Shown here one piece after another: positions 3,305 to 41,462 of a DNA stretch of 64,000 nucleotides (its first letter is position 1; the number at the start of each line of letters is the position of its first letter). The notes beneath the pieces are model-generated. The model was not told where the DNA came from and made no database searches. It saw only the letters and a program-made list of their open reading frames with translations. Origin of the DNA: Negaprion brevirostris (Eukaryota); the NCBI GenBank assembly GCA_030324005.1, contig JARDVH010000099.1, positions 36,292,460 to 36,356,459 of the forward strand. The letters are read 5' to 3'. The position numbers and the translations under genes are program-made.

Positions 3305-3382
3305 ATGATTGAATTGCATCTCAGCCAAAACTGAGCAGGTACATATATATGCTAAGTTTTGGCAGAGATGCAATTCAATCAT
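3305..3382. repeat. Long inverted repeat/hairpin (33-bp arms, 2 mismatches, 12-nt loop)
   Basis: Left arm ATGATTGAATTGCATCTCAGCCAAAACTGAGCA, loop GGTACATATATA, right arm TGCTAAGTTTTGGCAGAGATGCAATTCAATCAT. Confidence 0.95.
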
Positions 3383-12800: not shown

Positions 12801-13254
12801 CCCTTTTCACAGTGGTCCAACCAAAAGGTTTCTTGGCCATTACAATCCTCTGTCTTGGCACAAATTTCCTATTTCTTCAAATCTTAACTCATTATTCACA
12901 ATGGGTTTTGACACTGGATATTTTCCTATGCGAGAGGCAACCTCTTACGCTGTTCAAACACTGAGCCAGTGATGAAGTGTGTCAAAAAATTGATGCAAAA
13001 GGGTGCACTAATATTTGAAGTGCTTAAACTTTATCAGTGAGGACTAAGTCTATTGTTTCAGGTCCGACTGATGGTGATTAATGTGTCAGTAAGTGTCCTC
13101 CAATCTCAGCATACCAATGAATGTCATTAAATCATCACTCACAGTGATGGACTTTGGCTTGGCTGACTGAATTTGATTACAGATAAAAGTTTAGTGTTCA
13201 GATTCAGAAGCAGGAGACAGAATATTCATTTAACAATATTAATGGTCAGGGAGG

Positions 13255-13370
13255 AGGGGGCAGACTTCCTCTGTCATAAATCTATATAATCAAATTTCTA
13301 ATTGAATGGTAGAATAGTCTCAGGGAGCTGAATGGGCCTACTCCTGATCTATTGTGCCTGTACCTATATT
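13255..13370 (+). mobile_element. CR1 3' tail remnant
   Basis: TTGAATGGTAGAATAGTCTCAGGGAGCTGAATGGGCCTACTCCTG matches the CR1 tails at 30948 and 62820. Confidence 0.7.
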
Positions 13371-14317
13371 CCAAAGCTGGGCTTTTTCTTTCTGTTGTGC
13401 AAATTTTATTATATTCACATATGAACCATAATTATTTTATCTATACGTTGGTGTGAGAGTGAGGGCACCAGGAGTAACTCCGGATTCAGTTCCTTGGATA
13501 GTTTAGTTTCACTTTTAAAGTGGAGAAACAAAAATGAAACTCATTTTTGAAATAAAATTNNNNNNNNNNTTGCTATTTAAGAGAATTTTAAAAAGCCACA
13601 TTTCAGAATAGCATTCAGTGCTGTAACTGAGCTACTGTAGATGACATTTAACCCCACGCTAACATTTTCTTTCAGGAAAGTCCATGTCAAGTCAAAGCAA
13701 CCTCAATTATAGGATAATAGTTTTGACTGAGAAATTGCAGAGTGCATTTGTGGTCTTGTTGCTGAGGTTGGAAATGCTGCTCAGCCACAAAACTCCAGAT
13801 CTAGCCGTTGTGGAAATTGTGTAACTTGATTGGTGTTTTGCTTTCTTCACCAAGGTCCGTATGTTAATAATCCTTGCTTTATGGTCACCGTTCAGAATCA
13901 GCAAGTGTACCATCAGACACCAACCACCTCATTTAAAACTATGGCAGTGCCTATGCAACCATCATCTTTAGCTTGTAAAAGTGTTTCTGTGGGGGTGTGA
14001 ACTAAACAAACAACAAAAAGGAAGTTGAACTAAAACTACAAAGTTAACTATTCCTACGTTCAGTAGTAAAAGTTTGTCAATATCCAGTTGTTATTATATA
14101 TTCCTGTACAGTACACCTTTTTGGATTTCATAAATCTCTTTGGACTTGCTGTACATTGTGTAGCTGTGACTTCGAGCTTTATATTAACACAAACAAAGAA
14201 GGGGAAAGAGTCAGTGTAATTGTAAATTGCAAAGAAAGTGAAATGGAAATACCGATATCTGTTCATATTCTGTATTTAAGACTTAGCTCCAGAAAGTGCA
14301 AATTATTAAACATTTAT

Positions 14318-14513
14318 TTGAGTATTGTTGAAAAAAGAAATTGTAGCTTTTCATCTTGCATTCATCAGGACAGCTCACAAGAAATGATCAATTTATCTTA
14401 TTATTTGATTGTAATTTTTAAAAACAACTTAGGTTGGTAGTTTCTTGCAAGCAGTCCTGATGAGTGCAAGATGAAAAACTTTAACAGCATCTTAATTTTT
14501 CAGCAATACTTAA
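14318..14513. mobile_element. Fold-back element family 1, copy A (inverted arms of about 70 bp, each with a decayed hammerhead core)
   Basis: The reverse complement of the left arm (TTTCTTGTGAGCTGTCCTGATGAATGCAAGATGAAAAGCTACA...CAACAATACTCAA) aligns with the right arm (TTTCTTGCAAGCAGTCCTGATGAGTGCAAGATGAAAAACTTTAACA...CAGCAATACTTAA). The spacer is about 56 nt. Confidence 0.85.
14453..14486 (+). ncRNA. Degenerate minimal type I hammerhead ribozyme motif
   Basis: AGTC-CTGATGA-GT-GCAAG-AT-GAAA-AACT-TT-AACA. The CUGAUGA and GAAA boxes are intact but stems I and III are mutated. Confidence 0.65.
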
Positions 14514-15174
14514 GTTCCTTTATTACTTTTGAAATCTAAAACTCCTTCCTTGCTCTTTTTTTGAAAAAAGTTTCATAATCAAAAATCAACAACCAAAAAA
14601 ATTAAGATCCTCTCCCATTTATTGTTAAATATTTATATTGTCATTTGCTTTGTCCTTTTGATTTCTCAGCAATTGAACTGCCATAAAGGAGGAGGGGGGA
14701 GACGGTTGTGAAGCACAGTCTGATATAACATCTGTGGGGCTGGTATTTAGGTTTGGAAAAGGTGTGCAAACTCTGTTCCTGAACTATCTGAGCATTGAGA
14801 TTTAAGAGCAATGCCTACTCTACTGATGTACGAGACCACGCTGCATATCATTGACCTGAAAGTAATATTTGGCTAAACAGTGATTGAATGAATGGTGCTT
14901 TGGTCTCCTGATTAATGGCCCTTGTTCTTAATGTTTTCATTGGCTGCTTCAGAACTCATAAATGAAAAGCTGGTTAAATAAACTGCGCATTGATAATTGT
15001 GATGACATTGACACAGTGATTTTTAAAAAAAATTGTTTTGATTCTGCAGTATGGTTAAAAGCAACACTTCACATCACATCCACTTGGCAATGCCAAACCC
15101 ACACGCACACAATAATACATACCTGTGAGAGATTTGGAATACACCAACTTGGTAAGGGGCTCAGATGACATAAT

Positions 15175-15288
15175 GGGTGAAATTTCGTGGCCTTGCTCGT
15201 CCCAAAACCATAAAATCCTGCCTGTGTCAACAGACCTCCCCATGCTCCCCTCACCCACTCCAACTCCTGTGGCAGTAAAATTCCGGCT
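15175..15288. mobile_element. MITE, PIF/Harbinger-like
   Basis: Imperfect TIRs GGGTGAAATTT ... AAAATTCCGGCT flanked by a 3-bp duplication AAT (15172-15174 and 15289-15291). The interior resembles 44421-44535. Confidence 0.7.
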
Positions 15289-15550
15289 AATAAATCTGAG
15301 AGGAAAGCTTAAGCAGTCGATGAATGTTATCTGAATTCATGGATTATTTTAGCAGTATAACTTCCTTGTGGTCATCTTCTTATAATAAGAAGGGATCAAA
15401 AAGATATGTGCATAAGAATCCTACTGGTCAAGCTTCCATGATGATGCATTGGGAAACGAGATAGTTTTTAGGCAAAGTGCAGTTTAAAGATAAAGCAAAA
15501 TTAAATCTAGGTGTACAGATAATTCAGCTACATATAATGTCCTTATTTTA

Positions 15551-15646
15551 GGGTGGCATAGTGGTTAGCACCATTTCCTCACAGCACCAGGGACCCGGGT
15601 TCCATTCTGGCCTTGGATGACTGTGGAGTTTGCATGTTCTCCCTGT

Positions 15647-15679
<33 letters not shown>

Positions 15680-15922
15680 GGGGGGGAGAGGTTTCCTCCC
15701 ATAGTCCAAAGATGTGCTGGTTAAGTGCATTGGTCATGATAAAAATAAAATGTCCCTTAGTGTCCAAAGATGTCTGGGCTGGATGGATTGGTCATGGTAA
15801 ATGTGTGAGATTATGAGGATGGGGAGAGGGGTGGGCCTGGGTGGTGTGCTCTTTCAGATAGTTGGTGCAGACTCAATGGGCCAAATGGCCTCTTAACTGC
15901 ACTGTAGGGATTTTATGATTCT
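15551..15922 (+). mobile_element. tRNA-derived SINE (HE1/V-SINE-like) with internal (GT)n
   Basis: A-box-like GGCATAGTGGTTAG, B-box-like GGGTTCCATTC, central TGTGGAGTTTGCATGTTCTCCC...GGTTTCC domain, and a CR1-like tail GGGCCAAATGGCCTC...CTGCACTGTAGGGATT. Confidence 0.9.
15648..15677. repeat. (GT)n microsatellite followed by a G-run
   Basis: Directly visible GTGTGT... tract inside the SINE. Confidence 0.95.
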
Positions 15923-16019
15923 AGGATTTATACAATACTTTGATTTTGTGTTATTCTTTATAATTGATTTGCAAAAGGTACAACAGTTTGGTAATTTGAA
16001 TTTGTACTGATTGTCTTGT

Positions 16020-16293
16020 TTAAGTATTGCTGAAAAAAGACACTGTCAAAAAAAAATTTTCTTGCACTCATCAGGACAATTTGCAAGAATACTAAATGTA
16101 AACAACAAACTTGGCAGTAACTCAGTCATCAGCTAAGTGGTGCATTCTCCATGGCAACACCTCTACCAACCAGCACTCTCTCTTTTCATGCAGTCTCAAC
16201 TGCTGTTCCCTTTATATTTGATATTCTTGCAAATTGTCATGATGAGTGCAATACAAAAAGCTTTGACATGTGTCTTTTTTCAGTAATACTCAA
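16020..16293. mobile_element. Fold-back element family 1, copy B
   Basis: The left arm TTAAGTATTGCTGAAAAAAGACACTGTCAAA...CTTGCACTCATCAGGACAATTTGCAAGAATA is the reverse complement of the right arm TATTCTTGCAAATTGTCATGATGAGTGCAATACAAAAAGCTTTGACATGTGTCTTTTTTCAGTAATACTCAA. The interior GGTGCATTCTCCATG is shared with copy C. Confidence 0.9.
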
Positions 16294-16694
16294 CCACTAT
16301 CTCTTCTATCAAATGACTAATTGTCTTATTCCTTTTAGTTCTGTCTGTTTATTCTTGGATGTGCAAGTGACCAAGGGGAAAATAGACTATTTTTAAAATA
16401 ATTGTGAATATAGGTTTGATTAATATAGATTAGATTTCCTCCTCATGTTGCTCCATTAGAAAACTGGTTACAACTTTATCTTCATGCCTACTGGTTACAA
16501 AATATGGCAGATGCCTTTGAAGCCTTCATGTGGACACCAGTTGAGAATCCTTGATCTAGGTGACCCATTGTAGTAGTTATAAAATTCTGTATTATTTTGG
16601 ATATTTGTTCTAGGACTGACTAGAGCTCAATGTTATGAATGGTTTGCAGCAATTATTGTGTTCTGCATTTTCTAGGTATTTTTCATATAGTGAA

Positions 16695-18360
16695 TATAGA
16701 ATCATAAAATAGCATCCTTCTGTGCTGTAACCATTCAGCTTGTCACATCGTTAAGAGTTAGTTAGCTAGTCTCATTCCTCTATCTTTCACCAATATTCCT
16801 GCACTTTTTCTCTTTAGATAATTATCCCATTCAGTTTTGAAAACTGTGATTAAATTTGTCTCCACCTAATTTTCAGGCAGTGCCACAAGCAAATTTTGAA
16901 ATTGTGCCCTCTACACCCAAGACTAACTTATATCAAGGAAAATAGTAGCCCTAAACTAAACCCTGGAGAATCCCATTATAAAACTTAATAAGTTGGAGAA
17001 ACAGTATTCATACCTACTGTTTCCTGTCATTTGGCCAACTTTATATCCATGCTGCCACTGTCCCTTCTATATCATTGGGTTCAATTTTGACACTTGTTAT
17101 GTGGCATCTTTATCAAACGTCTTTTGAAAGTTCATGTACATCAATCACATTGCCCTCTGTCTCTTTGAGCATATTAGTTAAACATGATTTGCTCTTAACA
17201 AAATTCGTGTTTGCTTTTCTTAATTAATTCAAATGTCCATGTGATTGTTAACCACAGATTATTATTTCTAACAGATTTCCCACCCCAATATCACACTTGC
17301 CTGTAGTTGCTGTTTATCCTTGCACACATTTTTTGAATAAGACTAACACATGTCATTCTCTAGTCTTGGAGCACCACCCTTGTATCTAAAGAGAATGGAA
17401 CAATTATGATAATTGCCTCTGCAGGCCCCACAGTATCCCTGTTTGCATCTCATTGGATCCTGATGATTTGTCAACTTTTAAGTATAGCCATGATTTTGAA
17501 TACCTTCTGTCTATCAATTTTTCTTAACCCAGACATACCAGAGTTGTTAGTTCTATGCCGACTGTATATAATGATGAGATATTCTCATTAAATAGGAGCT
17601 TACAAACCTTTTCCCTATTTCCCAACTACCTCCTCTTTCATTGTGCCTTTGGCAGCATATTTATCCTGGGCCAAGATAGATGCAAGTATTCATTTAGTAC
17701 CTCCATCAAGTAAAATCCCCTGTAATAACTACTCAGTATTTTTCACGTATCATTGTAAGTTGTTTGCAAATTTGTTCCTCAATATTTTTCCCACTGGTTG
17801 GAAAGACATCGTCTGTCTCCAGCACTATAATATTATCCTTTAATTAGCATGTGGTTCCTCCTCCTCGTTTCTTTCCTTCCATATGTTACTGGAACTTGTA
17901 TCTAGGAATAATTAGTACACCCTGTCCTATCTTCTTACAGGTCTCCATTATTGTAATAACATCCTCCCACATGCTACCTGCATTTTTCTGTGAATTCACA
18001 TAAATGCACTATAAACCTAATTTAAATCTTACTGCATTCCCTCTTACTCTGAACCCACCACAGTATCTTTTACTCTAGTGCTATCTGTCTCTCCTAATTC
18101 TTTGTGCACCTTGTTTTTCTATCCCTAATGTTACTTCCTGGTTTTCACTCACTTGCCTCCCCAATAGCACCAGCAAACAGCCCTGCAAGGACATTGATTC
18201 CTGGCTCTGTTCAGGTGCAACCTTTCTGGCCTGCTCATCTCCCATCTCCCCATGAACGGTTCCCGATGTTGCAATGACCTGAAACCCTCCCTCCTGCACA
18301 AATGTTCCAGCCACACATTCATATGCTATATCCTCCTATTTCTATACTCAGGGAGGCAAC
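16695..18360 (-). mobile_element. Long decayed CR1-type LINE, including an ORF1 esterase-like remnant
   Basis: CR1 tail at about 16700 and RT-like remnants. At about 18180-18320 the reverse strand reads MNVWLEHLCRREGFRSL, resembling the CR1 ORF1 SGNH-esterase motif NxWLxxWCRREGF. Confidence 0.7.
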
Positions 18361-18431
18361 ATATCTTCCTAAATTGAGGTTTGTGGCACAGAAACACCTG
18401 TCTGTTGTGCTAACTACAGAATTCCCTGCAT

Positions 18432-18850
18432 GGCCTGAAATCTTTGGGTGTCAGGGGCCTAGAATTGGCGTGAACACATCCCTGCCAACTCTGACAGACC
18501 CACTGCCAATTAAACCATCAGTAAGCACTGTATGGCAGCAGGAAGGACATCCATCCTCACTTGGTTTGAAGACCTGCCTTAGAGTGCTGCTGGCCAATCA
18601 GATTGGCTGGCAAGTCTTCAAACCTTCGGGCACTGCCCTGGAGGTGGGTGGTGGTGGTCAGTAGGGTGTGTTATTGGGGTCTGAGGGAATAAGGAAGGGG
18701 AAGCCCAGGCCTTCAGAGGATGGTGCTCTCTATCAGAAGGGAACTCATTTGCCTGCCAGCTAAAAACTGAAATTGAGTGCACCACTTAGGGGCCTTAAAT
18801 GAGGCAAGGAGACCCCCCTCCTGCCAAGGCCTTGCCTGTCCCAGCATAAA
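18432..18850. mobile_element. Decayed Harbinger-like non-autonomous element
   Basis: Begins TGGCCTGAAATCT. It is a GC-richer island with GGCCAATCAGATTGGCTGG and CTTAGGGGCCTTAAAT motifs like other MITE-derived blocks in the window. Confidence 0.45.
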
Positions 18851-18894
18851 TTGCTTTCTGTTCAGGGCCTGGTGGGTCCCGGAGGTGTTATTAC

Positions 18895-19880
18895 TAAGTT
18901 ACATAACTCCTCATTCGTCCTTTCCAAACTGGAATGTCTAATTTTCTCTGGCAGATCTTTTTATAATGTCGACCTTTTCACTCTAGCGATCAGTCTAGTG
19001 GATCTTTACCGTACTGCTCCCAGTGGAGTGTTTTCGTTAATTCTTGGCAACCGGAATTCGATATAAGATTCAAAAGTGTGGTCTGATCATAACAGTTGAA
19101 TCACTACTTCCTCTGACTTTTACTCTGTTGTTTTGGCTTTTTGTTCAACATTCTATCGGCTTTATTGATTGCTGCTCTGCACAGTTAGGCATGCTGGTTT
19201 TGAATTTACTAAGACCCCTAGATACTAAACATTTTGAGAGTATACATTCCTGGTACAAAGTACTTTGCATTTGTCTGCGTTTAACTTCCTGTCATTTTCT
19301 GCCCGCAGACATATTTTGTCCGACTAACTCTCATTTGTGAGCTGTCTCCTTTGATTTGTCTCCCCCCACCATTTGAAAATTGTACTATGCATTGAGTTTT
19401 GGAGGACAGGTCATTTATGTAAATTAGAATAGCTGTTGTCTCAATGCTTAGCGCTGGTGCTCCCCATCTTTACCTCTCCCAACACTGACAAAACTTTAAT
19501 CTGTACCTATTATACTCCACCTTTCAGCCAATTTTTATCCATTTCTAAGATTTGCATAGCCTTCCTTACAGCTTTAAGTTTAACCACTATCTTTTTGTGT
19601 GGAGCTTTTCCAAATGCCTTTTGGAAATCTCGCTTAGTGGAGACTAAANNNNNNNNNNNNNNNNNNNNNNNNNNNNNNNNNNNNNNNNNNNNNNNNNNNN
19701 NNNNNNNNNNNNNNNNNNNNNNNNNNNNNNNNNNNNNNNNNNNNNNNNTCCAAATGCCTTTTGGAAATCTAGCTTAGTGGAGACTAAAAGGTTGTTCACG
19801 GATCACTTTGGTTATCAATTCAAAGTTGTTGAGATTTTTCAGGCTGTATCTTTCCCAGTTTTGTTTCATCCTAATTGCTG
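18895..19880 (-). mobile_element. Decayed CR1-type LINE RT fragment
   Basis: CAAATGCCTTTTGGAAATCT is the reverse complement of the codons for DFQKAF, and further RT remnants are present. Spans an assembly gap. Confidence 0.7.
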
Positions 19881-20104
19881 CCTACTTGCCCTCTATTATC
19901 TTTTGTGAAGCATTTAACTTGCAAAGCTGATCCCATCCAATTCATGTCTGACGATGAATAGCCATGATGTTTAAATTAATTTCCCTCCTCATGAAAGCTA
20001 AATGTACAGGAGCGAATTCAAGAAGGAAAATGTGTAACTCATTAAATATTGCACTGCTTAACTTGCGTAAACGCTTCCAAGTTCTGCTCCCTGCTTTCTC
20101 TACA

Positions 20105-21243
20105 GAGTAGAACATACAATCATTTGAATTAGGAGCAGAAGTAGGCACATTAAGCCTGCTCTGTCATTTAATAAGATTGTGATAACCCCCAAGAAGTCCA
20201 TAGGAAATTACTGGTTGATCTCCCTGTGAGACCTGTTGAGTATGAGTTCTCCTGGTAACAGGTAAAGGCCTACCCATCACCTACCTTTTATAAGGCAGGC
20301 CCAGGACTTGACCCGCTGAACAGTAGTCCAGGCAGGGACTAGTGTATGTTCACCATGAAAGTGGTTTGACCTGGCAAATGTTCCTTTCCAGTTCGGCTTC
20401 CTGAGTTATTACAAAGGTCATGGTTGATCCAATTGTGGCCTCTATGTCACTTTCTTGCCTATATCTCCTAGTCTTTGATTTCCAGGTTAATCAAGAATCT
20501 ATTGGTCTCTGCTTTAAAAATATTCAATGACCTGCCTCAGCCACTCTGAGGAAGAAAGTTCCATCGACTCATGGCCCTCTGAAAGAAATAAAATTCTCCT
20601 TATCACTGACTTAAATGGAAGACCCCTTATCTTTCAACTGTGTCCCTTAGTTTTGGTCTCTTCCACAGAGGGAAACATCCTTCCAGCATTCACTCTGTCA
20701 AGCCCCTTCAAGTTCTTGTATGTTTCAATAAGACCACTTCTCATTTTTCTAAATACCAATGCATACAGGCCTAACCTGTCCAACATTTCCTCATAAGATA
20801 ACGCTGTCATCCCAAAAATCAGTTGAGTGAATCTTTTATGAACTGCTTATGTAATATATAATTTCTTAAATATGGAGACCAAAACTGTACAAACAACTGC
20901 AGATGTGACTTCAACAATGTCCTTTTTAACTGTAGGAAATCATCCCTACTATTATTGCAAGATAAATGGAATATAAACAAGAACATTCCGTTCCTAACCA
21001 CTTGCTGTACCTGCACATGAATCTTTTATGATTCATGTACTTGATCATCCAGATCCCTCTATATCTCAGAATTCTTTAATCTCTCTCTATTCTTCCTACT
21101 GTGGACACCTTCACATTTTCCCACATTACACTCCATCTGCCAAATCTCTGCCGCTGACTTAACCTATTTATTTCCCTTAACAGATCCCTTCTAACCTCGA
21201 AACAGCTTACTTTCCTGTCTATTTTTGTGTCATCAGCAAATGT
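20105..21243 (-). mobile_element. CR1-type LINE 3' fragment interrupted by a solo LTR
   Basis: The reverse strand encodes FADDTKIDRKVSC, MQVQQVVR and VQFWSPYLR. The tail is at about 20105-20177 and resumes at 20414. Confidence 0.9.
20178..20413. mobile_element. Solo LTR (236 bp)
   Basis: Termini TGTGATAA ... TTATTACA (TG...CA with a short inverted repeat). A 5-bp target duplication AAGAT/AAGGT flanks it, and it splits an otherwise contiguous CR1 tail. Confidence 0.8.
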
Positions 21244-21244
21244 A

Positions 21245-21460
21245 GGAAATGCATTTGAAAGCCAAATCAAGAGTAAATCAAGGCATTGCTGGATCTGAAG
21301 CCAATTTAAGTCAGCAAGAAGAGGGGAGATGGATAATCGGAATCTACTGTTAGTTAGGGCTTGGGCAGTGAGGGAAATTTTGGACCTGCTCAAGTTTTTG
21401 GAGGATGATAGGTGTTCTGAATAATGTCTCTCTATGTTTACCTGAACAGAACTCCTGCCT
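21245..21460 (-). mobile_element. L2-type LINE ORF2 C-terminal fragment
   Basis: The reverse strand reads ISPLLADLNWLQIQQCLDL, resembling the L2 motif ITPxLxxLHWLPxxxRIxF. Confidence 0.7.
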
Positions 21461-24400
21461 TGAAGTTCTATTGCATGACAAAAATGCCTGTCACTGATCT
21501 TTACTAGGCAGTACACTGCAAATCATGGGATTTACTGCTGGCATGTGCTATTCTGGAAGCATCATGGGTGGCAGGTGAAGATGCTGAATCTATTCAGACA
21601 CCCTGAAGTGGTTTAAAATGGTTCCTGTGGCCCTATGTAGAATAGGCTGATATCCAAAATGCACTAGGCTTTTCAGGGATCCTCTTTATGTACAGAATTC
21701 CCTTCTGTATGTAAATAGCCATGTTTATGATGGGCAGGCATCTGGAAAAAAACAGCCACAAGTTGTAACCCGATCTACCTGAGTTGTGGCCTATTTTACA
21801 GTTCTTCTGCTGTATTCTCCTTCAGGTAATGGTGGTAGTGGATGAGCTAAGCATTTTCAGACTGTGTATCTTCTTAATTGGACCTGAGCACTTTTACAGC
21901 AATATATATGAGCCCTTGTGAATCCCTACTCCCCTTTGGAGTGGACTAATAATCAGGTGCTTTACATATTTTTTTAATGAGCTGCCTATCTTGTTGCACA
22001 CCCCATGGCCCCAGCATTTAATTTCAGTCTGAACTTTATCTAATTTGCAGGGTCTTGATGGTCTCTTCAAAGTGTATGTGCTTCAATATATACCATATAA
22101 CATGTGGAATTAGGCCTCTTCATAATTCAAAGAGCCAGTTCAATCACAACACACACTCGTAATCAATTGCGACACCTGCTTTAGTTTAAATTTATTGCAG
22201 TTGCACTTAGCCATTTGCTGTTTTTGTGAATAGTAAAAAGAAATTGAAAAACTTAGTGACCTCAAATATCATGTGATTTTAGAAAAGAGTCTTGTATCAT
22301 TTTGTCTCATATCGAGCCAGGTAAGTCAGCACGGCGGTTAAATGTAATTGACACTGGTTGGCATGAATCTTGATCACTGAAATGTGGTTTTGGCAGTCCT
22401 CCCTGAGTTGGAAGGGTGTGTGTACTTTGTGACATATTATAATGCATTTAGAATATTTAACCAAATTGTCTGCTCTTTGAAATACTGTGAAATTCCTGAA
22501 ATGTCTTCTGAAATGAAGTTACCTCAGGCACAATTGATCATTTTCTGCTAGCACTGGGCTACAACTATCAGAGTGTTTCCTGTTTGGGAGATGGCTATAT
22601 GTAAACTGGCTCTTGGATAGTTGTATAAATTAGACATGTCAAGAATTGTAAGAAGTGGGGAGGGGGTAAGGCAGCTATAAATGGTTTTAACAGAATGAAG
22701 ATGCCATGGGAGATTATTTAAAATTCTTGCTGTGTACAGCTGCATCCTCATCTCTGAATAAGAAGTGAGATTACTTTGCTCTGTTCTATGACATTCACGT
22801 CTTTGCTCAATTAGGACCCAAGTACAAAATCCTCCCACCCAGAATTGTCAGTTAACTTTTCAGCTTAAATGTAGTGAAAGTGGGCAATGAGTTTTTTTCA
22901 TATAAAGGTGTAACCAATTCCATTTTAATCAGTGACAAACTATATACTACTTTTGATGAGAACTTCCTCAAAATGCTCAAAAATGAGGTTTAAAATGAAA
23001 TTTTTGTTACTGTAAAGCAGTAGTCAAATAATTGTGTTTTGTAAATATGTGACAGAAAGATGCAATTCAGCTTGCAATGGCATACTTGAGCAAAACTGTT
23101 ACTTGCACATGATGTCATCACAATGGGCAACAATTTGCCTTTTACAAAGTGACAATAGCCATCTCATACCACTGCCATTAGTGAAACCTCTAGAAATCAG
23201 AGACTCACAAATATTTACTGCCCCTGTTAAATCTGTAAAAAATAAAGTTTAGAATGATTGTTCCATTTGTCTGGGCAGAATTTCTATTTAATTGTGATAA
23301 AATGCTTGTCTGAGCCAAAGAGGGCCAGTTGTTTGACGAGGACTGTTGCTGTATATTTTTAAGCACGAACAAGGTTAAATTTAGCTCTTGAGAAGAGGAA
23401 GATGCGAGGAAATGACTACCACCTTTTAGACGCTAATTAATAAAAACAGCATTTAGGAAGCCGTAGTCGCTTAATAGAAAGAAGCTGTATTTGAATAACT
23501 ATGAAGTGTGATTGCGTGCACAATTTTCACTGCTGATAGTAAAATAAATGAAATGTTATTGCACACAGTTACCAATCACCACCATTCAATTTGTGAGTTT
23601 GCCATTTACAGGAAAGCTACGCTTCAAAACTGGCTTTGAACTATCTTTTAAAAATGTATCATTTTTAAAGNNNNNNNNNNNNNNNNNNNNNNNNNNNNNN
23701 NNNNNNNNNNNNNNNNNNNNNNNNNNNNNNNNNNNNNNNNNNNNNNNNATATCCATATATAAGACCAGCTTCCATGTTTTCAGTGTATGAGTATACACAG
23801 GCACAAAGTAAGATTATTTTGCTGTGACCTAATAGATGGTATAGCTTTGTGCTGAGGATATTTTGCAAAATGCAAGTTGAATTATTTTCCTTTCCCCCTC
23901 CCTCCCTCCACCTCTCCAACCAATAGTTCCACACTTATTGTGTACTGAAAACAAATGGCAATAACTGAATCCTATGTATTTTCAAATGGTCTGCTGGCTG
24001 TGGCCACTGTAAGGGACATTATTTCACTCTGGGCATTTGCTAACATTGATCTACCCTTAATTTTTCTTTCACCTTTTTCCCTCTTCATTTTTAGAAAGTG
24101 ATTTAGAGAATAGTATTAGTGCTAAAATCTATTTCTTTCCTTGGAACTTTCTGGACTGCCATGCAAATCGCAATTTTTGTTGGGGTTGGTTAGCACTGCC
24201 AAATGGATTTGATGAGAATGTTGCCTGGAGGCTCTGTGATGACATTGACACAGTAGAATTCAGTCCAAAATTTTGCTTCATTATATATAATACGTTTTAC
24301 ATTTCTTTAGTACTGCAGTATTAACAAAACTGATATGTTGTATTTACTGTGGTAAGCAGTTGTGTTAAAGATCTGTTAAGGCATGATGTAACTGGGAATT

Positions 24401-24639
24401 CCTCCAAGGATCCCTGACACTGCTTCAGGCAGATATATTCTTTTACAAATGCACCTTTTAGCCAAGCCTCTGAACGCTGACCAGTCAATTGTGAAACTTT
24501 GTGGTTTAATTTTGCAACAAAATAAACCCATTCAGTAAGAGTGATTTGCTATAAAGGAGATGCATGAACAAGTGTTAAGTTTAGTTCTTTTAGTCTTTTA
24601 CTTTTTAGTTGCTAACTCGCCTATTTGACTCCACAACCA

Positions 24640-25010
24640 CTGACAGCTCCCTAGTACCTCAAGCATGCAGCTGTCTTTCATATTCAGTCCTAGATAGTGA
24701 GAGCCAGCAAGATATTTGGCTATGAAGGGCAATTGACCTTGAACTTAGCCTCACAGAATCATAAAAAATTTTCTAGCAGGCGTTACTGGCTAACAATTAA
24801 CAATGAGAATCCTGACCTTGCCCCCCACCCTGACCACCACCACCACCTCAAGCACCCCTTCCCACCTCTTCTCTTCCAGTCCATGTGACTGAAAGTGTAG
24901 AGTTTCCAGCAAATTTATCAAAAATCAGGGATCAAACTAAGGAACTGGAAAGTCTATATGGTTAAGCATCTCACAATGCAGTGCATTTATTTACTAAGCC
25001 ATTCAGGCAG
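24640..25010 (-). mobile_element. Ancient degenerate SINE-like repeat
   Basis: Collinear with 4850-5225, ending in a tRNA-like head remnant (CAGGGATCAAAC...TACTAAGCCAT). Confidence 0.55.
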
Positions 25011-25944
25011 TAAAAGTTCAATGTTAATGCTGGCTTTTGAAATAATCTGGAATAATTGATAGAGAGAGAACACTTAATGAGGGTGCTTCTTCGATGATGA
25101 CTGTCGCTCGTTTATTTGTCAATTCCCAACACTGCAATAGTAATGGCGGGATAAAAGCAACAATGACGTTGCCACAGGGGTTTTCCGATTACCAGTAAGA
25201 GGCTTCTAATATAACTTTAAAGTGCCTTGTACCTTTTTGTATCAGACTGCTGTTGCCTTGTACTCTGTAGTGTCTATTTTTGTAGAAGAAAATTGCTCAG
25301 GGGGTGAATCCCTGGGGCTTTGCACAGCAGTGCATACCTTTTTAATTAATTTGACGTGTTTGTGGAAACCATCATTGGTGTTTAATATTTAACCCATTGA
25401 ATACCATTGCGTTACTTATTTTTTCAGTCCTTAAAGAAGTGACAAAGTTTTTGGTAAATTAAAGTGTTCGATTAATAGAGCACAATAATTGGACTTTGAA
25501 ACTCAGCTCTTAGAATGGTGTTTTTAAAGTTTAAAGGAGTTTTTAAATGATCTCTTTTTGGAAAGTTACTTGGACAACTCAATATTTGATAAGTTATTAT
25601 GGAGCAACACAGTTAAATGTAATTGTTTTTCAGCGAAAGTTGGACACTTCTGCTGGTGCTCCAGACCAAATGAAAGCTTTCAGCAGACTGTACTGAACTC
25701 GGACCACATTAATACCACTTAACCATCACTGGTTGGTGCAAAAAAAGCTGCATGTTATTTTCCAAAAAGCATAAAAGGTGTTGCTATGGGCGACTGCAAT
25801 AGGTGAAATGTTCTTTATTCCTGTCCTACTCGGGTCCCCTCTCTCACCCCTTTTTCTAATATATTAATGACTGTATCAGTCCAGTTTCAGAGTCAATTTT
25901 CTTGGTTTGAATTGGATCAAAAGTTTGACAGTTAACTGTTCCCT

Positions 25945-26120
25945 GGTGCATTCTCCATGCTAACTTTTCCACCAATCAGTGTCCACTTGTCAGTGAACTA
26001 GCACCCTCTTATAAATTTTTGTTCCTTTTGAGATTTGGCATTCTTGCAAATCTGTACTGGTGAGTGCAAGATGAAAAATTTCAACAACATGTCTCTTTTC
26101 AGCAATTCTGAAGTTCTGTA
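25945..26120 (+). mobile_element. Fold-back element family 1, copy C (interior plus right arm only)
   Basis: Interior GGTGCATTCTCCATG...ACCAATCAG, then ATTCTTGCAAATCTGTACTGGTGAGTGCAAGATGAAAAATTTCAACAACATGTCTCTTTTCAGCAATTCT, which is homologous to the arms of copies A and B. Confidence 0.85.
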
Positions 26121-26884
26121 CAATAAAGTGACTGAGGTTTTATGTTTGAAACCAGAGTATGGCATCAGACCCAGAACTCAAAAACAATTTGCTCATGGGC
26201 TGCATTCCCTCTGAGGGAGGAAACAGAGGACTTATGGGGGTCGTTTATTGGATTTTTCATTCCCTTGACTGTGATAGAGACAAGTTATTTTTCCAAATAA
26301 GTGGAGATAGGCTCTTGAAGTGAGTGGACTAACCAGAGGTCTTCCAGCTTGAGTGGAGCAATAGGCTGCAGAGGAAATTATGTAACAGAGAGGGTGTTTC
26401 AACATGGAGATACCATTCTGCCTTAAAGACAGATGATGCAGCTTAGCCACCACTGCTAGAGAATCTCTCTAGTTGGTGGCATCTACTTCTTTTGCACCAA
26501 AGCAGGCTGCGAGGACCTCTTGGGCTGCCTGAAACTGGCCTGGTGTGCTTGCTCTAGGGACCAAAATTGCAGCAGATTGGAAAGTACCAGTTAGCCCTCT
26601 TTAATTGGACTAGAGGCACCACAAAGCCTGATTTGGTACCACGGTTCTACCTCTGCAAGAAACTGGCACACTGGCTGGCGTGGATCATTTTCAAGCCTAT
26701 CTGCTTCCGTCCCTGCCCTTGATGGAGGGTAGGGGGAGGAGCGAATGCAATATCTTTTTTCACATGTTTGCAGTTGTGTAAATCTGACCATTTGAAAGAA
26801 TAGCCTTTCGCACCTAAATTTTTTACTTAAATTCATAGCTGAGGTATTTTTTAAGTGATGAATATTTATTTTATTATATAGTTA

Positions 26885-27090
26885 TTGTCAAATGGAATGC
26901 CATGCCTGAATGGTTGGGAAAAATAGATTCAATAGCAACTTGCAAAAGGAAGGTGAATAAGTACTTGAAAAGTAAAAAGCAAAATTTGCAAAGCTACAGG
27001 GTAAGCATAGGGAAGTGTAACTGGCTAGCTCTTGAAATGAACTGGCAAAGTTATGTTTGGCCGCCTTTTGCCTGTCAAAATCTATACTTT
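26885..27090 (+). mobile_element. Decayed CR1 3' UTR
   Basis: TGGAATGC...GATTCAATAGCAACTTGCAAAAGGAAGGTGAATAAGTACTTGAAAAG is homologous to 32285-32550. Confidence 0.65.
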
Positions 27091-27993
27091 TTGTGAGAAG
27101 GTCTGGGTGAATTTCTCTTATTTGTCTATTAGAATGTTATTTCATAAAATATTGAAATAAAGTAGTGAAATGGCTGGAAGCAGCTGAGTCTATTCCAGAT
27201 TTAAGGTCAGTTCTCACTCAGTTAGGATGTTATTTTCCGACTGATGATTCTGGACTGTCTGCCTCGTTGCACATAACTCCTTTGTTTTTCAGCCACTGAT
27301 TTAACAACTCTCTGAATTGAGGCAGTAATTGTAACCAATTCCATTCTATATGTTTAATACATTCTTAAATAGTTGATCAGTGTTCGCAATCTGTTAGGTT
27401 AATTAAATCCCAGTTATATCGGCTACTGTGGCTAATGCATATTAATCACTAAATTGTTCTAAGTACAGTAAAAGCAAGTGGATGATTAATGTATCATAAC
27501 AGGTAATTGATTAAAAATGCTCAGGCACTCATAAACAGCAGAAGTACAAACAGGTCCACGTAGGACATTTATGTTCTTTAATTTTATAGCTGAGCTCTTG
27601 TGTGACTTGAGTGCTATTGCTGGATATAATTCACACTTACCATTGCTGCAGAGATCCTCTTTTTTCATTCATGTTGTATTGATCTCTGTACATGCTTTCT
27701 CTTTCTGTACTGATTGTGCTTGTGATTGGTCCCTTTTTATAATTTCCAATGTTATTTCCAAACATTTAAAACACACAGTCATAGACGTTGCATTTCTTAC
27801 CACACTCCCCTCCTGTAAGTGGAGGAAAGTGTTAGAACCCTCAGATATGTGAAATATTTCTGCTGGGTGCTACTGTGGATTTTCTCTTTACCTCTCATCA
27901 TGTTGGTGATTCTAGAGCCTGAATCAGCCTTTCCTTGATCATGACCACTTGCAGGGTTTCTTACTGGAATGTTGGCAGATATAAAACACCATA

Positions 27994-37757: not shown

Positions 37758-38315
37758 TTAATTCATTGGATGTGAGTGTCGCTGGTTGGGCCAGCATTTA
37801 TTGCCAATCCCCAATTGACTCTTAAATACTCTCTGAAATGGCAATCATATTGTTGAAGAGTATTAATGGACCAGATGGATTTTATAACAATGGTCATTTT
37901 TTTTAATCCCATGGAATTTTGATTCTATACTTTTGTGGACTTCAAATTTTACCATTTGCTGTAGTGGGATTCAAATCCAGGTTCCCAGAGCTGCTCACAG
38001 CACCAGGGACTCAGGCCCGATTCCTGGCTTGGACCACTATTTGTGTGGAGTTTGCACATTCTCCCCTTGTCTGTGTGGGTTTCCTCCAGATACTCCGGTT
38101 TCCTTCCACAGTCTAAAGATGTGCAGGTTAGTTGAATTGGCCATACTAAATTCTCCCTCAGTGTACGCGAACAGGCGCTGGAGTGTGGCAACTCGAGGAT
38201 TTTCACAGTAACTTCATTGCAGTGTGAATGTAAGCCTACTTGTGATTAATAAATTTTAGAGCATTACCCTGAATCTCTGGATTACTAGTTTAATGACAGT
38301 AGCACTATGATATCC
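37758..38315 (-). mobile_element. SINE of the 30448 family, split by a younger SINE
   Basis: Reverse-complement match to 30448-30825 on both sides of the insert (GTGGGATTCAAATCC...CCCAGAGC | ATTACCCTG...CTCTGGATTACTAGT..AATGACA). Confidence 0.8.
37992..38257 (+). mobile_element. 5'-truncated HE1/V-SINE-like SINE with an alternative tail
   Basis: Body TGTGTGGAGTTTGCACATTCTCCCC...GTGGGTTTCCTCC and tail ATTTTCACAGTAACTTCATTGCAGTG...AATAAA. AGAGC is duplicated at 37987-37991 and 38258-38262. Confidence 0.9.
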
Positions 38316-38465
38316 AGGATAATTTAGAATGTAAATGAAATTCATAGAGATTGTGATGAATTGGAATACATGATGTGGAGATGCCGGTGTTGGACTGGGG
38401 TAAACACAGTAAGAAGTCTCACAACACCAGGTTAAAGTCCAACAGGTTTATTTGGTAGTAAACAC

Positions 38466-38499
38466 CACTAGATTTCAGACGCTGTTCCTTCATCAGGTG
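38466..38499 (-). ncRNA. Degenerate minimal type I hammerhead ribozyme motif
   Basis: The reverse strand reads CAC-CTGATGA-A-GGAAC-AGC-GTCT-GAAA-TC-TA-GTG. The core boxes, stem I (CAC/GTG) and UA cleavage site are present. Stems II and III are mutated. Confidence 0.7.
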
Positions 38500-38724
38500 A
38501 GTGGAGAGTTCTGATCACAAACAGGGCATATAAAGGCACACACCGTTTACAGAATACTGATTAGAATGCAAGTCTTTACAGCTAACCTGCTATTCAAGTC
38601 TTAAAGATGCAGACAACGTGAGCGGAGAGTGAGTGGTTAAAGAGATGTGTGTTGGCTCCTGTCTGGAGACGATACACATCTCTTTAACCTATGCAAATGC
38701 TATCTCGACTCACATTATCCTGTA

Positions 38725-39050
38725 AGTTTCAATAAAACCGCCACTCATTCGTCGAAACTCCAACGAGTACAGATCCAGAGTCCTCAACCTTTCCATGTAC
38801 TACAAGCTTTTCATTCTTGTGAACCTCCATTCATCCCTTTCCAAGGCCAGCACATCCTTCTTTAGATATGGGGCCCAAAACTACTCCAATACTCTAAGTG
38901 TGGTCTCACCAGAGCCTCATAAAGCCACAGATACCCACCCTCTAACCAGTGAAAAAGTATCTTCTCAAATCCCCTCTAAGTCTCCTACTCCTGAGCTTAA
39001 ATGTGCCAGAACAGCTATTAGACTGCAGCTTTGTCGATGATCTCGGGAGT
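38725..39050 (-). mobile_element. CR1 fragments
   Basis: AGATATGGGGCCCAAAACTACTCCAATACTCTAAGTGTGGTCTCACCAG is the reverse complement of the LVRPHLEY...FWAPYL motif. A second piece reads FKLRSRRLRGDLRRYFFT. Confidence 0.85.
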
Positions 39051-39136
39051 ATCTGATGCTTTTCATTATATTTTTGATTTTGTTTTGCCTCTAAGTTATT
39101 AGGTAAGGGATATAAACTTTGTAAACAAAACAATTC

Positions 39137-39328
39137 TGATGAAGGAAGAGCGGTGGATGTGGTTTCCATGGACTTCAGCAAGGTGTTTGATAAAGTCCCC
39201 CATGCAAGACTTATTGAAAAGGCGAGAGGGCATGGGATCCAAGGGGCTGTTGCCTTGTGGATCCAGAACTGGCTTGCCTGCAGAAGGCAGAGAGTGGTTG
39301 TGGATGGGTCTTTTTCTGCATGGAGGTC
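39137..39328 (+). mobile_element. CR1 reverse transcriptase fragment
   Basis: DEGRAVDVVSMDFSKVFDKVPHARLIEKARGHGIQGAVALWIQNWLACRRQRVVVDGSFSAWR. Runs into a gap. Confidence 0.95.
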
Positions 39329-39616
39329 NNNNNNNNNNNNNNNNNNNNNNNNNNNNNNNNNNNNNNNNNNNNNNNNNNNNNNNNNNNNNNNNNNNNNNNN
39401 NNNNNNNNNNNNNNNNNNNNNNNNNNNNNNNNNNNNNNNNNNNNNNNNNNNNNNNNNNNNNNNNNNNNNNNNNNNNNNNNNNNNNNNNNNNNNNNNNNNN
39501 NNNNNNNNNNNNNNNNNNNNNNNNNNNNNNNNNNNNNNNNNNNNNNNNNNNNNNNNNNNNNNNNNNNNNNNNNNNNNNNNNNNNNNNNNNNNNNNNNNNN
39601 NNNNNNNNNNNNNNNN

Positions 39617-39847
39617 ATAAGCTAACCCCCTCATCTCCGGAATCAACCTGGTGAACCTTCTCTGCACTCCCTCCAAAGCCAATATATCCTTTCACAAATA
39701 AGGGGACCAAAATTGCACACAGTACTCTAGTTGCAGCCTCACCACTACCTTGTACAATTGCAGCAAGACCTCCCTGCTTTTATAATCCATCCGTCTCGCG
39801 ATAAAGGCCAACATTCCATTTGTCTTCTTGATCACCTGCTGCACCTG
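39617..39847 (-). mobile_element. CR1 ORF2 C-terminal fragment
   Basis: QVQQVIKKTNGMLAFIARRMDYKSREVLLQLYKVVVRLQLEYCVQFWSPYL and ALEGVQRRFTRLIPEMRGLAY. Confidence 0.95.
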
Positions 39848-39876
39848 ACAAAGGAACAGCGTTCCAAAAGCTAGTG
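39842..39876 (+). ncRNA. Degenerate minimal type I hammerhead ribozyme motif
   Basis: CAC-CTGACAA-A-GGAAC-AGC-GTTCC-AAAA-GC-TA-GTG. Stem II (GGAAC/GTTCC) is perfect and stem I is CAC/GTG. The two core changes are G>A after C, consistent with CpG decay. Confidence 0.65.
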
Positions 39877-41462
39877 GCATTTACTACCAAATAAACCTGT
39901 TGGACTTTAACCTGGTGTTGTGAGATGACTTAATGAATTGGAATATCCAGAGATCTCATTGCCTCAAAGTTCTTTGTAACTGCTGGCATATTTCTCTTGC
40001 TCTGATTCCTCACCCCTCCATGCTTCTGACCCCATCCATATCCCTCCACTCTACTGACTCACCCTTGGTGGTCCTGAGCCTCAGTGTAAACTGCCATTCT
40101 CCTGCTCTCCTTCACTATTCCACAGAATATACAAAGCTGACAGTTTTATAAATATACAAAGCTGACAGCTACACACCACCTTTAAATGACTGGGAACCAG
40201 CCATTATGACATTCTTATGAGTGTATGCCACTGATTATATCCTTGAGATGGGACATTATTGAAAATGGCTTCATGCTCACGGCATGCAAATATACTTGTT
40301 AAAAGTATGAATCCGCCACCATCCAGTATAATGCTCAACACTCTGCACACGTGCTGCTGACTTTATCTCTGCATCTCAGTTGCTGTTGGAAAATCATGAT
40401 TTAACATTCCACCTCATTAAATCACACCATGTTTCCTGCTCTTGCAGGTTCCATAAAAATACCCCCCTTCTCCCTGTGTCTGTCTTAGTTTATGCCTCAC
40501 AAAAAAGTGACCAATCATGCCTTGAATGTCCACTTTTTGTTAGGTTTGTTGATGTCCCATTGAAACTAACTGCCTTATGGATTCAATTGGCCTGCGTGGG
40601 ATTCGCAGCAGTCTTCAAAAGTTAAAATGTGAGAGTGATGTGAGGAAGTTGTTTTTGGGTTAGAGTGCATTTGGTAATAATACCTTTATTTCATGATAGA
40701 TAAATGACATTTTGAAATATGAGGGTCACTGTAATTAAAGGTCACTACAGCAGCCAACCTGCATTCGGCCAGGTCCCATATAAAATGGAGATAAATGGCC
40801 ACCTAGTCTTTTGACAAATAAATATGTTCTGGGCTTTGGCAGAACTCACTGCTCTTTTATGGTACTTTTGGATCTTTTGCAAGCAATTTTAATCTCCCAC
40901 TAGCAGGAGATTGGTGGGGTTGGGGTGAGTTTTGGGGGTGCGAAGGGGTGGTGTGTTAAATTAGTAAATATGTGAAACCTGACCACATTCCAACATGAAA
41001 GCGCCTGCTTCCAATTAATGGTGCCAGATTTTGGCAATTGGGATAACCTGTTCAGGAGAGGCAAGTCTGTAATTATAATATTTAAATGAATTTTGTTCCA
41101 CCAATGTTAGCAGCTATTTAAATTTAATGCAGCAAACATGGTAACTAAAGGGAACGGTGATGGGAAGAGGGGGACTGCCAACTCCAGCAGAAAAATGCTT
41201 ATGGGTCAACAGAATCAACATTGGTTGTTTCCCCAAGCCTTTCCAGCAAGTCTTCTTCCCTGATCTGCTGATCTCCCCAGATCTTTTGCTTGTTGTCACG
41301 ATCCCAACTGCGGTTTTCCACTGTTGGAGTTCCCTCCCTGCAACTGACTATGCTCTCAATCTAGCTGGCTCCTGAGAGAGAAGCTGTATTTAAAAACAAA
41401 AGGAGGCTGCAAGATGCTAAAAATCAGATCCGTGCAAATGGTTTGATATCTTTCCAGCATGT

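Follow-up and report, generated by a model that had tools for sequence, protein, structure and literature searches.

We analysed a 64-kb stretch of Negaprion brevirostris DNA (contig JARDVH010000099.1), called the window below, which holds five related short sequences (arms), each with the remnant of a hammerhead ribozyme motif. An earlier sequence-only reading had described them as three fold-back copies of an undescribed mini-element. Alignment and a profile search of the window recovered the five homologous arms where that reading had placed them, exactly five at E<=1e-15 and nothing further below E 0.5, and the mean column identity across the aligned arms was 69%. We conclude, with a probability of about 0.9, that an old endonuclease-positive (EN+) Penelope-like retrotransposon left the arms behind as its decayed, 5'-truncated 3' ends, two of the three copies being head-to-head pairs of such ends.

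Copy 1 (14318..14517, both strands) consists of two very short Penelope 3' ends placed head to head. The full tail is absent from both its left arm (~14318-14405, minus strand) and its right arm (~14420-14517, plus strand), and the flanking repeat is weak, with 7/8 positions identical. Copy 2 combines a short, tail-less inverted arm (16020..16105, minus strand) with a long arm (16100..16319, plus strand) made of about 195 nt of pseudo-long terminal repeat (pseudo-LTR) followed by a tail at 16294-16319. Likely target-site duplications adjoin it on the left (16010..16019) and on the right (16320..16329, both listed on the plus strand), identical at 9/10 positions with one mismatch. Copy 3 (approximately 25887..26141, plus strand) is a solo 5'-truncated 3' end with its tail starting at ~26113; an inverted partner was looked for in 24501-27500 and not found. 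The earlier description of three fold-backs therefore holds for copies 1 and 2, each of which folds into one long hairpin (z -13.0 and -12.6, with 0/200 shuffles equally stable), but copy 3 is a single arm. Two sets of ends are also revised: copy 2 reaches 16319 instead of 16293, and copy 3 covers ~25887-26141 instead of 25945-26120.

Copy 2 is bridged at both junctions, and copy 1 at its left one, by DNA contigs labelled as another organism (organism A) and ~3.5% divergent in the unique flank, indicating that both insertions are shared and old. Within the window itself, no remnant of the element's coding sequence was found (best E 2.0).

Reverse transcriptase and endonuclease upstream of the arms

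A search of the 2.69-Gb assembly with copy 2 as query gave 76 matches from the best 40 of 2085 candidates. Altogether, 156 arms (146 distinct) were extracted from 144 loci and the window. Homology among them was anchored at the 3' end and faded upstream at variable points, and the sequence upstream of the arms in longer copies was a degraded open reading frame (ORF) for a reverse transcriptase (RT) with a C-terminal GIY-YIG endonuclease (EN), some hundreds of bases from the arm. In a full HMMER search, a 90-aa open piece from this upstream sequence had 292 relatives at E<=0.001, one of which was a 682-aa RT plus endonuclease protein. Pfam applied to 19 relatives reported GIY-YIG in 12 (one above the cut-off, most just below it) and RVT_1 in 2. 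The degraded 90-aa endonuclease piece itself gave no GIY-YIG match in Pfam and only an Argonaute N-terminal match at E 0.08; a word-indexed homolog search of longer proteins found none among 9 candidates, and a protein atlas returned a GIY-YIG cluster at 0.92, which we treat as a lead only. When the genome was searched with the 90-aa piece, the best 150 of 5519 first-look candidates were scored and all of them matched. One related protein was labelled Scyliorhinus torazame. A catshark protein model, P0095, has an endonuclease-like piece fused behind an RNase H-like domain and is probably a gene-prediction chimera.

The full RT plus endonuclease relative was also used as a query. RT, endonuclease and arm followed one another in order on one strand at 11/144 loci, representing 10 distinct places, and among 48 loci chosen by the endonuclease alone the hammerhead-bearing end was found downstream in 30. 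This collinearity, for which the sequence-only reading had advised looking, supports its proposal that the apparent terminal inverted repeats (TIRs) are Penelope pseudo-LTR ends and not the ends of a DDE element.

Despite the decay, the motifs DKG, GxAMGS and YVDD, a CxC inside GIY-YIG, two His, an Arg and a Glu were kept. Loci L051 and L255 retain PDKG, the YVDD columns read Y12 V15 D16 D16, and the commonest endonuclease residues were C58, C54, H48 and H55 among some 65-70 aligned copies. A CX2-5CxxC zinc finger was looked for in the RT-EN linker and none was found, only scattered Cys columns. Under the definitions in PMC8557442, the architecture predicted from these motifs is Penelope/Poseidon. 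Assignment to Neptune was considered and ruled out, as the linker zinc finger is lacking and the features that define Neptune or Nematis were not seen.

L255 is broken but nearly full-length, and a truncated copy in inverted orientation adjoins it on the 5' side. Among 31 loci with the 5' part of the ORF, a same-strand end plus tail lay upstream in one (L242) and an inverted arm in seven. At L242 the end and tail continue into sequence common to 4 other loci, which is open for ~100 codons and leads to the RT region. Thus, the first codons of the ORF probably correspond to the last bases of the arm together with the tail, as described in PMC3846280. No intact copy of this Penelope family was seen, and a match with a 943-codon "open frame" was discarded because it consisted mostly of N.

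Two further observations concern the coding part. Segments at L004, L006, L024, L120 and L142 start near profile position 586-594, in the endonuclease-coding part, and this cluster of starts is either a truncation hotspot or a profile artefact. L092 (G000:C11832:178-1611, minus strand) is a stop-free match to a Penelope-type RT plus endonuclease on a small contig, without a match to the arm or 3' profile of the present family; it is either foreign DNA or part of another family, which may be young, and several further small contigs look like it.

The hammerhead motif

The commonest letters among the 146 distinct arms spell a minimal type I hammerhead, with stem I TGTC/GACA, core CTGATGA, stem II GT/AC closing a GCAAG loop, then GAAA, AGCT and TC. 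Each column of the CTGATGA core had its majority letter in 119-130/146 arms, and the stem III palindrome AAGCTT is among the majority columns. The motif that had been reconstructed from the window alone is thus borne out genome-wide, and so is the CpG decay assumed in reconstructing it. Among 113 arms unselected by motif, the first CpG site was TG in 50, CA in 40 and CG in 3, and the second was TG in 51, CA in 31 and CG in 8; in the remaining columns, 17% of letters differed from the majority. The 32-nt motif occurs genome-wide as one exact copy, at G000:C106:11057308-11057339, and as 36 copies within <=1 mismatch, compared with 0 for a reversed control, and 27 of the 35 single-mismatch copies are CpG transitions.

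A minimal-hammerhead descriptor was passed by 24/146 arms overall and by 0/5 window arms, in agreement with the earlier expectation that the latter are mutated and probably inactive. Both remnants in copy 1 fail it: the left-arm remnant (14342..14372, minus strand) has lost stem II and the cleavage-site U, and stem I and the stem III palindrome are broken in the right-arm remnant (14453..14486, plus strand). In copy 2, the GAAA/stem III part is gone from the short arm (16044-16078, minus strand), and the long arm (16235-16268, plus strand) carries the changes C3>A and G12>A. The remnant in copy 3 (26053-26086, plus strand) has A6>G as well as a broken stem I and palindrome. With core- or stem-breaking changes in all five, the window arms are dead.

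The Rfam scan to which the sequence-only reading had pointed as a check came out negative. No hammerhead family was matched by the covariance models at E<=10 in window positions 13000-27000, or even at locus L115, which holds the intact natural copy. Nor was there clear excess conservation of the ribozyme within dead copies, in which hammerhead blocks were 12-16% off the column majority and neighbouring blocks 14% and 18%. For this reason, evidence of covariation was drawn from other families, using 8 hand-picked related-family examples, 5 of them closely related to each other. Pairing was seen in 97.5% of the cells in this set, compared with 23-48% in slid controls. Stem I covaried, as 6/6 pairs changed on both sides and 0/500 shuffles matched this. 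Stem II showed a single one-sided change and no double change, and stem III was invariant, so that the covariation suggested earlier for stems I and II was found in stem I only. Related metagenome elements gave a loose core match in 48/80 loci fetched by endonuclease alignment; the matches lay mostly 117-240 nt past the ORF, and the majority came from one family. By its structure the motif is a conserved hammerhead, and it is a ribozyme by prediction.

In the parent element, the hammerhead would act as a dimer in tandem transcripts, since a monomer with stem III closed would not be a permitted fold; cleavage may also require help from protein (PMC11167929). In the fold-backs, the mutated hammerhead would be sequestered in the hairpin. 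Folding of the fold-back RNA gave the sense core a pairing probability of ~1.0 at 13/14 positions, the partner being the other arm, which implies that a ribozyme there would be locked and not free for cleavage. A transcript would therefore be the long hairpin proposed by the sequence-only reading, but its sense ribozyme core is predicted to be held by the opposite arm.

The motif shares with the minimal type I hammerheads of metazoan Penelope-like elements (PLEs; PMC4209133, reviewed in PMC6765202) the conserved core, G10.1-C11.1 and a stem I of 4-5 bp. It also shares the palindromic stem III needing a dimer and the occurrence mostly as single motifs. By contrast, stem II here has 2 bp, a 5-nt loop and no extra base after A9, whereas the Schistosoma motifs described there have 7-8 bp and the extra base. 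The 2-bp stem II and the AAGCTT palindrome recur in related metagenome Penelope families (L146:1304-1341, L152-L224). In one of these families, core position 3 is U in most copies, and a U3-A8 pair is present in L146; PMC4209133 reports this covariation in the core. In a variant at L147:2015-2055 and L149:1408-1449, the A-run ahead of the stem III palindrome is longer and the set of stem I pairs differs. A hammerhead with a 2-bp stem II and an invariant AAGCUU palindrome, common to distant families, would make a neat minimal ribozyme.

Arrangement of the arm pairs

Neighbouring arms within 3.5 kb formed 33 pairs, and 33/33 were head-to-head, with 0 in tandem and 0 tail-to-tail. Window copies 1 and 2 are in this set, as are L018 and an overlapping call, L136, and the first query introduced a bias in favour of pairs; of 30 loci chosen by the motif alone, only 4 gave a pair, many flanks being masked. 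At L018:700-1522, the outer flanks of the two arms are also alike, making this locus an inverted duplication of host DNA and not one insertion. Pair spans ranged from 112 to 2423 bp and only 8/33 were under 300 bp, which does not fit the fixed unit of 200-270 bp proposed earlier. The tail of ~25 nt was present on one arm in 22 pairs, on neither in 11 and on both in 0, compared with 3.7 both-tailed pairs expected (permutation p 0.004). The tailed arm was the longer one in 10/22 pairs and the shorter one in 12/22, in some by hundreds of bases. Flanks were 70% AT versus 59%. Flanking direct repeats were in excess when mismatches were tolerated (p 0.0005, 32 pairs, L136 excluded). That the excess appears only with mismatches is as expected of duplications that have decayed and vary in length, and no fixed-length target-site duplication was found.

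This structure is likely the already published footprint of Penelope-like elements and not a new mini-element family. The sequence-only reading knew of no description of this family; the arrangement is in print in PMC8557442, PMC3846280 and PMC4209133. The legend of Fig. 2 in PMC8557442 shows an EN+ Penelope-like insertion with a tail at one end and an adjacent inverted copy that is 5'-truncated. Passages of PMC3846280 report inverted pseudo-LTRs, duplications of 8-10 bp and head-to-head as the commonest form, and those of PMC4209133 report minimal hammerheads, weak dimer cleavage and opposite-strand pairs 100-700 bp apart in Schistosoma. With the EN+ insertions of the first two papers, our copies share heavy 5' truncation, the head-to-head inverted 5'-truncated copy at the 5' side, the tail at one end, a likely 8-10 bp duplication and the overlap of pseudo-LTR and tail with the likely first codons of the ORF. 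Two differences from those accounts were noted. The tail is ~22-26 nt here and 30-40 bp there, and copies 1 and 2 are so truncated that, unlike the published insertion units, they retain no coding domain.

Similarities extend to the Poseidon element PAc of Anolis (PMC11167929), which also has an RT with a C-terminal GIY-YIG, a hammerhead close to where the ORF begins, a pair of 3' end points with the tail between them, and AT-rich targets. PAc is active, whereas the shark family is seen only as broken copies; PAc start sites lie ~111-118 nt into the ORF, whereas the ends here lie ~30 and 55 nt past the hammerhead cut site. A literature search found no description of this shark-type family; its scope did not take in repeat databases and supplements.

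Formation of the pairs

A single insertion event probably gave rise to each pair, with reverse transcription of the element's RNA primed from both cut strands of the target. In this scheme, the endonuclease would cut both strands of AT-rich DNA ~8-10 bp apart, and each target 3' end would prime a cDNA, one at the distal start site, with the tail, and the other at the proximal start site, without it. Both cDNAs would stop early and be joined at their truncated ends; if both stopped within ~100-200 nt, the product would be MITE-like, that is, similar to a miniature inverted-repeat transposable element. Two cDNAs joined from opposite sides would have outward 3' ends, arm lengths independent of the tail and an outer duplication. 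A more specific version, which we put forward tentatively at slightly less than even odds, is that a protein dimer cuts both strands and forces the primers onto different start sites, so that both ends never carry a tail, that independently truncated cDNAs are then joined, and that the fold-backs record the end of the insertion. Consistent with parts of this scheme, PMC11167929 reported that in vitro a Poseidon protein cleaves AT-rich DNA on both strands and extends each of them, that two internal start sites bound the tail, that the protein is predicted to be a dimer, and that insertion is independent of ribozyme cleavage. According to the same paper, the later stages of Penelope transposition, beyond the priming of the first strand, are unvalidated.

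Several observations weigh against double priming of this kind. In vitro, no strand-dependent difference in start site was seen (PMC11167929), and PMC3846280 attributes the inversions to self-priming on an antisense template. In our own data, 80/146 arms, copy 3 included, had no detected partner in 1.5-kb flanks, many of which were partly masked. A third of the pairs (the 11/33 noted above) are tail-less on both arms, and the exclusion of two tails weakens at stricter thresholds (p 0.025 at 20 and 0.06 at 23). Exact flanking repeats were at chance level (p 0.30, 33 pairs), and the mismatch-tolerant test ignores local composition, with only 3/32 pairs scoring >=7.

The most serious alternative accepts the same dead-on-arrival element and differs in mechanism only, so that its probability lies within that given above to the identity of the arms. 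Here, the inversion would arise by fold-back self-priming, the template being either antisense RNA or the cDNA. Such self-priming was proposed from junction palindromes in rotifer Penelope (PMC3846280), and overlaps of 1-25 nt, measured along the profile, occur at several of our junctions. Shared variants were more numerous within pairs (1.55) than between pairs (1.05, p 0.003), as both models predict. Self-priming on a tailed first cDNA would need the tailed arm to be the longer one, contrary to the 12/22 pairs in which it is shorter. Copy-back of the tailed first cDNA cannot yield a short tailed arm with a long partner, and was ruled out. The antisense-RNA version is possible. Cutting and extension of both strands, on the other hand, have been shown in vitro for the Poseidon element (PMC11167929). 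On balance, we moderately favour double priming over self-priming, which we regard as rather unlikely.

According to a second alternative, the fold-back unit of ~200-270 bp constitutes a non-autonomous family in its own right, which is transcribed and which Penelope proteins re-insert. Non-autonomous Penelope derivatives are known, as retrozymes (10.64898/2026.07.22.740005) and as pLTR-driven mobilisation in trans (PMC3846280). The 8/33 pairs under 300 bp would suit such a family, its arms end at sites that a Penelope protein would recognise, and, with only a few hundred out of thousands of candidates scored, a small sub-family might have been overlooked. We nevertheless consider it very improbable. 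The spans are continuous, 0/18 tight junctions recur (no two share both breakpoints), and the inner sequence is the next stretch of the autonomous element. Arms are no more than marginally more alike within pairs (0.744, or 74%) than between them (0.728, or 73%; 31 pairs, L018 and L136 excluded), with no young homogeneous subset. The distinct non-autonomous family of the sequence-only reading is thus replaced by truncated 3' ends of an autonomous RT plus GIY-YIG element.

Still less credit is due to remnants of tandem non-LTR retrozymes or satellites. Retrozymes resemble the arms as short, hammerhead-bearing, Penelope-related repeats (PMC7229834 and 10.64898/2026.07.22.740005), have the type I hammerhead in a short repeat, and are reported in a cartilaginous fish in the latter. 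They are head-to-tail arrays of a non-coding monomer, whereas the arms are inverted pairs or solo ends of a coding element; 0 tandem same-strand pairs occurred among the 33 neighbouring pairs, and the inner sequence belongs to the coding part of the autonomous element. The least probable reading, a MITE of a DDE DNA transposon whose TIRs resemble hammerheads by chance, would account for the short size, long inverted ends and hairpin fold, but the linkage of the arms in cis to the Penelope ORF, with RT and GIY-YIG collinear, refutes it, and most arms are solo, the ends are unequal because of the tail, lengths vary, the duplication has no fixed length and the motif covaries across Penelope families.

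For annotation, such short hairpins are easily misfiled as MITEs or as new ribozyme elements. The pair statistics (always head-to-head, never two tails, arm length not tied to the tail) constrain the post-priming steps of Penelope insertion and can be scaled up. If double priming is correct, thousands of copies in one genome would allow the unvalidated joining step to be tested by counting.

No tRNA genes were found in the window. A high-copy repeat resembling a short interspersed nuclear element (SINE) lies at 15552-15920 and also near 37968, 55179 and 61104, and is by far the deepest stretch in DNA runs; we presume that it resembles the shark tRNA-derived SINE HE1. The window also contains inverted repeats unrelated to the arms, namely short hairpins at 3305-3382 and 38635-38689 (arms of 33 nt and 25 nt) and, at 38407-39935, a 69-nt inverted pair whose members are 1391 nt apart.

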